Of a stretch of DNA of 64,000 nt, positions 35,619 through 35,870 are shown piece by piece (within the stretch, counting starts at the first letter, position 1; each line of letters begins with the position of its first letter). Origin of the DNA: an uncultured candidatus Porisulfidus sp. GTDB lineage: Bacteria; Pseudomonadota; Gammaproteobacteria; Poriferisulfidales; Oxydemutatoraceae. The DNA is taken from NCBI GenBank assembly GCA_965200865.1, contig CBDAVG010000002.1, forward strand, positions 1,097,838 through 1,161,837. Direction: 5' to 3'. The position numbers and the translations under genes were made by a program. A model generated the notes under the pieces. It saw nothing but the letters and a program-made list of their open reading frames with translations, did not search any database and was not told the DNA's origin.

Positions 35619-35870
35619 GGGGCTGTTGAAAAAGTACCGCCATTGCACAAATTGAACCACTATGTGCCATATAATTTATGAAAACCGTAGGGGCGGATTT
35701 ATATATCCGCCCTACGGTACCGTCCTGCAAAACCGTAACCGCTTTGCGCCACTTGGTTTTGGTTCCCATAAATTTGGTGGATGAATGTATAAATCGTGCA
35801 AGTACGTCGCGTTAGGGCGGATATATAAATCCGCCCCTACAATTCTATGGAATACTTTTTCAACAGCCCC
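35619..35870. mobile_element. 252-bp MITE with terminal inverted repeats GGGGCTGTTGAAAAAGTA / TACTTTTTCAACAGCCCC, inserted at ATGT inside a GGGAGGGC-ATGTTA-GCCCTCCC palindrome (ATGT duplicated).
   Basis: Terminal inverted repeats and flanking ATGT read directly from the sequence. Confidence 0.7.

Follow-up and report, generated by a model that had tools for sequence, protein, structure and literature searches.

An IS1182-family insertion sequence and MITEs with the same ends probably nest in the ATGT loop of a REP-like hairpin that the MITEs carry themselves

IS1397 inserts in the loop of REP sequences with a duplication of 3-4 bp. IS1111 belongs to the IS110 family, the members of which, IS621 included, have no terminal inverted repeats (TIRs), produce no target duplication and use a different chemistry. 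Insertion sequences (ISs) that target REPs have been reported in the IS3, IS110, IS4, IS256 and IS5 families (Tobes and Pareja 2006, PMC1525189), and they include ISPpu9/ISPpu10, ISPa11 and IS621 (PMC1525189). IS1397 and ISKpn1, both of the IS3 family, are cited as inserting into the REPs or palindromic units of enterobacterial BIMEs (PMC1525189, PMC3184786). In Coxiella burnetii, IS1111 inserts into a GTAG REP that is carried by a MITE, QMITE2 (Wachter et al. 2018, PMC5896051). Within the IS1182 family, IS1272 and TnSha1 target hairpins in staphylococci (PMC4923244, PMC5678879), and some members target palindromes according to the Siguier review as cited in PMC4923244. MITEs of the IS1182 type with 4-bp direct repeats are described in archaea, with ISMac2 of Methanosarcina acetivorans as the partner element (PMC3852290).

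The window, which is the whole stretch of 64,000 nucleotides that was analysed, contains an IS and short elements with the same ends. We propose that this IS1182-family IS and the same-TIR MITEs insert at the ATGT of a hairpin loop, duplicate these 4 bp and nest in one another in intergenic DNA, and we put the probability of this reading at about 0.8. The IS of Table 1 is an intact member of the IS1182 family with a DDE transposase, because the predicted protein scores 379.2 bits against the NCBIfam IS1182 equivalog NF033551 (profile positions 6-486 of 488; curated cut-off 270 bits), contains the Pfam domains DUF772 (PF05598) and DDE_Tnp_1_6 (PF13751), and has invariant acidic residues. In an alignment with about 18 homologues of 42-89% identity, D339/D347, D382, E509 and K516, the last two in an E-x6-K arrangement, did not vary; the catalytic triad was placed by position and motif. 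IS1182 elements are typically about 1.3-2 kb long (ISfinder), and the present one, with a single ORF between its TIRs and its total of 1815 bp, has the form of this family. The ORF includes an in-frame tandem repeat (171 bp x2.2, 54899-55266), and an exact look-up of the transposase sequence found no record. Copies of the IS that are about 89% identical occur in related loci (L019 3515-5329, L019 5509-7335, L075 1683-3314 and L089 9938-11758). All four are held in the loop of the same hairpin, three of them between direct ACAT repeats, and with the IS of the window this makes five IS copies out of five.

The 18-bp end of the IS is GGGRCTGTTGAAAAAGTA. The motif GGGACTGTTGAAAAAGTA, searched with at most two mismatches, has 19 matches on both strands of the window against 0.00 expected from dinucleotide-preserving shuffles, in agreement with the many further ends that the original prediction had mentioned. 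Three elements of about 250 bp are bounded by these ends (copies A, B and C in Table 1); the positions first given for them hold, and the copies are alike with a mean column identity of 91%, A and B being reversed relative to C. Each 250-bp MITE contains an inverted hairpin doublet, which in copy A consists of two inverted GTAG-GGGCGGAT hairpins (35687-35714 and 35813-35840), and as single-stranded DNA copy A folds at -64.7 kcal/mol (z = -11.2). The short units, 151-252 bp in length, have TIRs that are the same as that of the IS or differ from it in one or two bases, and they share with the IS only these 18-bp ends plus a few adjoining bases. ORFs that overlap them are mechanical only and none is a transposase. 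Small size, absence of a transposase, IS-matching TIRs and the ATGT duplication in common with the IS identify these units as MITEs. The composite element in Table 1 ends in a guest MITE of 228 bp (47145-47372), the right TIR of which abuts unique DNA. An Rfam scan of the whole window returned one tRNA only and no match on the MITEs.

Table 1. Elements, hairpins and arrays of the window with their positions
Feature	Position	Strand	Details
Tandem array of 84 bp, constant orientation	24462..24860	+	repeats at 24462-24834; five intact type-1 hairpins; closing TIR 24843-24860
Intact hairpin variant GGGAAGGC-ATGTTA-GCCTTCCC	35466..35487	+	in the intergenic region of copy A; compensatory stem change
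Left half of split type-1 hairpin	35607..35618	+	GGGAGGGC at 35607-35614, left ATGT 35615-18
Flagged MITE, 250-bp family, copy A	35619..35870	-	252 bp, 18-bp TIRs GGGGCTGTTGAAAAAGTA
Right half of split hairpin	35871..35884	+	ATGT 35871-74, TA, right stem GCCCTCCC
250-bp MITE, copy B	42336..42585	-	flanks GGGAGGGCTAACAT (42322-35) and ATGTTAGCCCTCCC (42586-99)
Composite element	47030..47372	+	left part of host with half hairpin and ATGT (47133-44), then guest MITE
Tandem array, three host units of 285 bp, unit 2 enlarged	49560..50708	+	unit-end TIRs 49866-83, 50406-23, 50691-708
251-bp MITE, copy C	50085..50335	+	in the hairpin of array unit 2; ATGT at 50081-84, 50336-39
Outer host element	54037..56398	+	contains the IS and the 151-bp MITE; bounded by the same TIRs
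Autonomous IS	54282..56096	+	1815 bp, perfect 18-bp TIRs, ATGT at 54278-81 and 56097-100
Putative transposase ORF, IS1182 family	54345..56075	+	576 aa; only ORF of the 1815-bp IS
151-bp MITE, second family (141-151 bp)	56101..56251	+	abuts the IS via a shared ATGT; followed by ATGTTAGCCCTCCC (56252-65)

The hairpin that is split by these elements has the sequence GGGAGGGC-ATGTTA-GCCCTCCC, and ATGT is found on both sides of the element. It is split by the IS of the window, by two of the 250-bp MITEs (copies A and C) and by the 151-bp MITE. Its two halves had been described as the flanks of copies A and C and of the IS, each with ATGT on both sides, and this can be read directly in the DNA. The arrangement GGGAGGGCATGT-element-ATGTTAGCCCTCCC is present at 35607-35618/35871-35884 and at 50073-50084/50336-50349, and a left half at 54270-54281 is followed by the IS, ATGT, the 151-bp MITE and a ATGTTAGCCCTCCC that ends at 56265. 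The DNA to the right of the split hairpin of copy A is 91% identical to the DNA to the right of the intact hairpin at 35466. On one point the original prediction needs correction, as it had placed ATGT at the centre of the palindrome; ATGT occupies positions 1-4 of the 6-nt loop ATGTTA and lies beside the stem.

That ATGT is part of the element would have been suggested if empty sites with a single ATGT did not exist, but such sites are common, as the window has nine of them and the pooled related DNA 22. Two of the nine intact hairpins are in the tandem array (49788-49809 and 50613-50634), the others start at 24470, 24554, 24638, 24722, 24806, 35466 and 54070, and all nine have a 6-nt loop. 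ACAT and half of a second hairpin form the joints between the array units. With its 540 bp, unit 2 exceeds units 1 and 3 (285 bp each) by 255 bp, which corresponds to the 251-bp MITE plus 4. The empty site reconstructed for unit 2 is 98% identical to the neighbouring units, in which the empty site had correctly been recognized. The empty sites of the window are paralogous, being located in array units and in further copies of the module. Excision footprints, which had been suggested as a check and would appear as hairpin loops of a length other than 6 nt, such as ATGTATGTTA, were absent among loops of 2-14 nt.

The hairpins of the window commonly have the form GTAG-GGG(N5)-loop6-(N5')CCC, with three stem types, GTAG-GGGAGGGC-TAACAT-GCCCTCCC, GTAG-GGGCGGAT-TTATAT-ATCCGCCC and GTAG-GGGCGGAC-N6-GTCCGCCC, and one variant with the compensatory pair GGGAAGGC/GCCTTCCC. 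As single-stranded DNA they have folding energies between -9.6 and -11.2 kcal/mol (z about -4). A scan of both strands of the 64 kb, which usually scores each hairpin once per strand, gave 51 matches or about 25-27 hairpins, all of them intergenic. These are GC-rich imperfect palindromes with a 5' GTAG that occur in many intergenic copies and in inverted doublets or arrays, as REP and BIME sequences do, and published hallmarks and consensus forms of the GTAG type match them (PMC2817692, PMC3733652). They could thus be ordinary REP/BIME sequences that were spread by a RAYT (Y1 transposase) from another part of the genome and around which IS1182 ends accumulated through repeated insertions, in which case the host MITEs would not be mobile units. 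A 125-bp array of alternating, BIME-like orientation (21675-22196) and the degenerate or single TIRs of many clusters agree with such an origin, which we nevertheless consider unlikely in view of discrete, TIR-bounded units that contain the hairpin and have their own duplications. One of them, a MITE of 168 bp at L060 2565-2732, contains an intact type-1 hairpin between its two TIRs and has in turn inserted at an ATGT, and a related MITE of 168 bp at L061 496-663 is located in unique DNA between copies of an ACAT duplication. Furthermore, the 250-bp MITE has kept both hairpins and both TIRs in the three window copies and in another genome. A RAYT-like motif of the NPV[RK]AG type was not found in six-frame translations of 841 kb of window and related DNA, a weak point as RAYTs are usually single-copy.

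The palindrome, although rightly described at the outset as REP-like and found to be of the GTAG type, is not an independent REP family but a GTAG-tagged module inside MITEs with the same TIRs. Since the target hairpin is carried by MITEs that are bounded by the ends of their guests, the nesting is self-nesting. The outer host element of Table 1 illustrates this, with a TIR (54037-54), an intact hairpin (54070-91), the body, the split hairpin (54270-81/56252-65), a third GTAG hairpin (56327-56355) and a degenerate TIR (56381-98) in this order, and L069 5686-5897 is a further MITE with these TIRs that carries the hairpin. Tentatively, GTAG hairpins may spread as cargo of IS1182-type MITEs without a RAYT. 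The family would then home to landing sites that it has distributed itself, a self-reinforcing 'safe haven' that would combine a heavy transposon load with few gene hits in a small symbiont genome, and sister ISs with identical ends would use different modules. We hold the odds to be somewhat against this wider proposal.

The preference for ATGT and for the hairpin can be expressed in numbers. ATGT or ACAT abuts 13 of the 22 TIR ends of the window, at a tetramer frequency of 0.8% (p about 2e-22). In a pooled sample of 96 unique TIR ends, taken from the window and from Porisulfidus-like loci, 48 abut ATGT or ACAT, again against 0.8% by chance (p about 3e-74). A half hairpin at the exact loop position accounts for 38 of the 96 ends and ATGT or ACAT in a non-hairpin context for 10; other sequences abut 46, and the remaining two adjoin a hairpin stem via a different loop sequence. 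Type-1 hairpins are filled in about 19 cases and intact in 22, an occupancy of about 45% in this sample, compared to one filled and 26 intact for the GGGCGGAY hairpins (Fisher p = 1e-4), the loops of which lack ATGT (TTATAT, TCGCAT and similar). ATGT appears to be necessary for insertion.

The transposase could read ATGT alone, and the link with the hairpin would then be due to survivorship, with the loss of those insertions that hit genes and with the loops as abundant neutral sites that are multiplied together with the MITEs. Duplications of ATGT or ACAT outside hairpins are indeed found, at L061 496-663, in the IS encoding P0010 (L092) and at L062 2840, and the non-hairpin ends make up 10 of the 48 that are flanked by ATGT or ACAT. 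These cases suggest that insertion can perhaps do without a hairpin and that survivorship may account for some of the enrichment. Since loop ATGT is also missing from the hairpin types that are not hit, stem identity is not separable from it. However, there are about 135 non-coding ATGT or ACAT sites in the window and about 20 hairpin loops (9 intact plus the split ones, by our own count), so that the loops represent an estimated 1/10 to 1/7 of the sites. Yet all five complete ATGT-flanked insertions of the window are inside hairpins, as are all five IS copies and 38 of the 48 flanked ends, and for IS1272, another member of the family, the hairpin structure itself is the target (PMC4923244). 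Recognition of ATGT alone is therefore improbable in our judgement. The hairpin context is strongly favoured, and recognition of stem sequence and recognition of structure are inseparable in the present data. Insertion at ATGT in a hairpin is not the sole entry route, as about half of the TIR ends adjoin other sequence.

That ATGT belongs to the element, with site-specific insertion next to it and without any duplication as in IS200/IS605- or IS110-like elements, or that TG is duplicated around a 19-bp inverted repeat (T...A), is very hard to maintain. In favour of these readings, a further base can be added to the inverted repeat (19 nt, 35618-35636/35853-35871), and more than one phasing is possible for the net insert of 255 bp. 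Against them, copies A and C are oppositely oriented in hairpins that point the same way and each is flanked by ATGT on either side, the IS combines a DDE transposase with perfect TIRs, and the varied duplications of relatives with the same ends (CTCGT, ACGAC, CAAGG, ACTT, TAAGA) directly abut GGGG/CCCC with no fixed T/A. The two IS copies of L019 are likewise in opposite orientations with ACAT on both sides of each. Since both orientations in like-oriented hairpins are flanked by ATGT on both sides, ATGT lies outside the element and is a real 4-bp duplication. The TG duplication with a 19-bp repeat was rejected from the junctions of the relatives and from the sequences themselves, and a 5-bp duplication as in the sister IS was rejected for the IS and MITEs of the window on the same grounds.

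Copy B differs from the other 250-bp MITEs in its flanks. It had not been claimed to be flanked by ATGT, and the hexamers beside it, TAACAT (left) and ATGTTA (right), form an inverted pair and no direct ATGT repeat. In full, these flanks are GTAG-GGGAGGGC-TAACAT and ATGTTA-GCCCTCCC-CTAC, two GTAG-side halves that face each other. The IS copy of L089 has flanks of the same inverted type, with TAACAT to its left and ATATGA to its right. Inversion as the source of the flanks of copy B was rejected on logical grounds, since flanks that are direct relative to the element would remain so after an inversion. A deletion between same-orientation copies that had inserted in the two opposed hairpins of one host would fit both cases best. 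Nested insertion with a later deletion or unequal exchange would account for the array of 285-bp units.

Nested insertions do explain part of the layered architecture of the intergenic regions, as had been proposed, but not all of it, in view of the TIR ends, about half of the total, that adjoin other sequences. The outer ends of the clusters adjoin varied sequences, and the array between purE and purK is flanked by an imperfect repeat of 11-12 bp. This gap holds the array with its MITE in the window and an IS in L089, and nothing in L094, which lacks the whole array and has 7 bp between the two genes. Other contributions to the architecture come from recombination or deletion and from tandem amplification.

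When one genome was scanned for each species, the TIR proved to be massively present in three MAGs of sponge symbionts, namely OZ244779.1 ('Ca. Oxydemutatoraceae') and the two 'Ca. Porisulfidus' MAGs OZ241323.1 and OZ244052.1. A cyanobacterial origin (Microcystis or Nostoc type, with Nezha-like MITEs) was rejected by this result. With an identity of 84-93% to the three MAGs the window is distinct from each of them, and it comes from a relative of 'Ca. Porisulfidus'. It is syntenic with the metagenome contig L089 over about 20 kb (90-93% identity) and with OZ241323.1 (L049, L093; 91-94% identity). Intergenic regions vary among genomes whose flanking genes are 90-94% identical, and those of L089, L093 and L094 that are orthologous to regions of the window differ from it and from one another. 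Such differences between genomes with genes of 90-94% identity suggest recent activity of the elements. The comparison of strains that had been recommended thus reveals variable intergenic regions, but in L089, L093, L094 and L095 no clean orthologous empty allele was found for the three 250-bp MITEs, the regions being orthologous and rearranged differently.

Related ISs with the same or similar ends use other targets. A sister IS (L090, L091) encodes P0008, which is 69% identical in amino acid sequence to the transposase of the window, and has the same TIR. Together with most of the MITEs of the Oxydemutatoraceae genome it is located in the spacer of GTGCAGAYA-[duplication]-ACAACCACCCC, and insertions of this type in the GTGCAGAYA/ACAACCACCCC module have duplications of 4-6 bp with varied sequence. 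The IS encoding P0010 (53% identity by BLASTP, 76% in the alignment) has ATGT duplicated at a site that is not a hairpin. A homologue of 45% identity has the end CGGCCTGTTGAAAAAGT and a 4-bp duplication, TCTG, with no hairpin. Short duplications are thus common to the clade, and the use of ATGT in a hairpin loop is specific to the lineage of the window.

In view of the above, the following course of events is proposed for insertion at the ATGT of the hairpin loop. The DDE transposase would bind the 18-bp ends and could also move the MITEs in trans. Cuts staggered by 4 bp would lead to integration with duplication of ATGT, as the comparison of filled and empty sites shows. The strongly preferred target would be ATGT at loop positions 1-4, which on the GTAG strand reads GTAG-GGGAGGGC-TAACAT-GCCCTCCC. 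The REP-like hairpin, often as an inverted pair, is carried inside MITEs that are bounded by the same ends. Each new hairpin-bearing MITE adds landing sites, and therefore the IS and the MITEs would pile up in intergenic DNA and spare the genes. Later recombination of nested copies, deletions and tandem amplification could then give rise to the inverted flanks, composites and arrays.

The locus is a clean and well-delimited example of how a DDE transposase from the IS1182 family, on which little work exists, chooses its target, here a fixed tetranucleotide in a hairpin loop. The IS of the window and the sister IS with the same ends and a switched target form a tractable pair for the question of whether transposases read sequence or structure. 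The locus also illustrates how the intergenic DNA of sponge symbionts turns into a layered mosaic that differs between genomes whose genes are 90-94% identical. The repeats can be of use in strain typing, in judging assembly errors and in annotation, the last because several mechanical ORFs in this region are repeats only. If it is true that the hairpins travel as MITE cargo, this would provide a RAYT-free route for the spread of REP-like sequences.

A likeness to IS1397 and IS621 had been pointed out in the original prediction. The behaviour of IS1397 is indeed the closer of the two, and the likeness to IS621 is confined to the class of target. IS621 and other IS110 elements have a DEDD enzyme, no TIRs and no duplication, whereas the IS described here has DDE domains, perfect TIRs and a 4-bp duplication. 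With IS1397 and ISKpn1 it shares a REP-type hairpin as the target and a specificity that is attributed to the transposase. In both systems sister ISs prefer different repeat types, as is seen here for the IS of the window and the P0008 element. The likeness to IS1397 is in behaviour alone, as the transposase of IS1397 is of the IS3 family and the one described here of the IS1182 family. To our knowledge, IS1397 has neither MITE derivatives nor target REPs that are bounded by its own ends. The IS1182 family is absent from the list of REP-targeting ISs in PMC1525189. Its member IS1272 also prefers stem-loop targets (inverted repeats), but IS1272 shows no specificity for a primary sequence, and on its insertion part of the hairpin is deleted or replaced and nothing is duplicated (PMC4923244, PMC5678879), whereas in the window both stem halves are kept, the loop ATGT is fixed and 4 bp are duplicated. 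The MITEs of ISMac2 resemble those of the window in their IS1182-family ends and 4-bp direct repeat, and the available parts of PMC3852290 do not report hairpin targeting or self-nesting.

The closest architectural analogue, judged by comparison of the arrangements, is the insertion of IS1111 into the REP of QMITE2. There too an IS homes to a GTAG palindrome inside a MITE, and the MITE loci are IS hot-spots with insertions that vary between strains (PMC5896051). However, QMITE2 is not presented as a derivative of IS1111 (PMC5896051), whereas the target MITEs of the window share the TIRs of the IS. Also unlike that system, the IS is a DDE element of the IS1182 family, the MITEs insert as well, and 4 bp are duplicated. 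New are thus the transposase family, the combination of a retained hairpin with a fixed duplication of 4 bp, a target that propagates itself and the existence of a sister with the same ends that uses another module. In the nesting of the IS and its MITEs we see a clear instance of behaviour that is already known, not a system of a new kind.

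Intergenic regions of the window differ between genomes. The 42336 MITE, a 250-bp copy with inverted flanks (42336-42585), lies in the intergenic region 42202-42641, and the orthologous region of OZ244052.1 ('Ca. Porisulfidus', L094) carries an IS110-family transposase gene; therefore, unrelated elements strike one intergenic region in different genomes. Between purE and purK, OZ244052.1 has a junction of 7 bp, the window a 1150-bp repeat array, and the syntenic metagenome contig L089 a host element containing an IS. An imperfect repeat of 11-12 bp (AAATTCAAGAT / AAATTGGAGAT) flanks the array in the window; it leaves the stop codon of purE intact, as well as the ribosome-binding site and start codon of purK. 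An imperfect direct repeat of about 22 bp (GACACRCC..TCGCTAGCCGCCGA; 21500-21527 and 22394-22420) borders the repeat cluster 21528-22394, of which the left terminal inverted repeat (TIR) is truncated, and duplicates the stop-codon region of the ORF at 20287-21519.

A sister IS, encoding P0008, has the same TIR as the window's IS1182-family IS. It inserts, as do many MITEs sharing this TIR, in the spacer of another module, GTGCAGAYA-[..]-ACAACCACCCC. Such same-TIR insertions are found in Oxydemutatoraceae loci (e.g. L003, L021, L027, L036, L048, L063 and L073). The duplications at insertions in this module are 4 to 6 bp long and varied in sequence. Both empty module copies and two TIR ends sitting in the module are present in the window.

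The transposase ORF of the window IS contains an in-frame 171-bp tandem repeat, which lies after the N-terminal DUF772 domain and before the DDE domain. The copy number of this linker repeat of about 57 aa seems to differ among IS copies, because close homologues vary in length (461, 515-519, 552 and 576-578 aa).

Coordinates of the features discussed (window positions unless a locus is named)
Feature	Position	Remarks
purE-purK, window	49560-50712	
purE-purK, L089	9790-11810	
purE-purK, L094	1369-1381	
IS110-family gene	L094 8428-9414	DEDD_Tnp_IS110, Transposase_20
Sister IS	L090 2938-4725; L091 1092-2879	
Empty GTGCAGAYA modules (examples)	35926-35955; 56160-56190	
TIR ends in GTGCAGAYA module	15561; 30649	
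Transposase linker repeat	54899-55266	2.2 copies; 97% matches
Large ORFs	36109-38163; 38341-40248; 40345-42201	684, 635, 618 aa; minus strand
PBECR2 nuclease domain ORFs	29945-30361; 33753-34289; 34800-35225	
PLD/NgoFVII-like ORF	31543-32460	
IS3-type HTH fragments	32877-33436	
23-bp tandem repeat, ACCTTTTCTGTACCCTCCCTGCG	11150-11441	12.7 copies; 86% matches
BIME-like array, hairpin GGGCGGAT	21675-22196	125-bp period; alternating orientation
BIME-like array, hairpin GGGAGGGC	24462-24834	84-bp period; constant orientation; five empty target sites

Three adjacent large ORFs, at least two of them paralogous, gave no match in a Pfam search and are conserved across the symbiont lineage with 59-94% identity. 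The stretch 29945-35225, with its nuclease-domain ORFs and IS3-type fragments, resembles a small patch of mobile or defence-like character.

Both strands carry mechanical ORFs that overlap the 23-bp repeat tract, and another such ORF (24377-24862, 161 aa) is made up of the 84-bp hairpin array only. The GTAG hairpins, REP-like modules, form two arrays in the window that resemble BIMEs.
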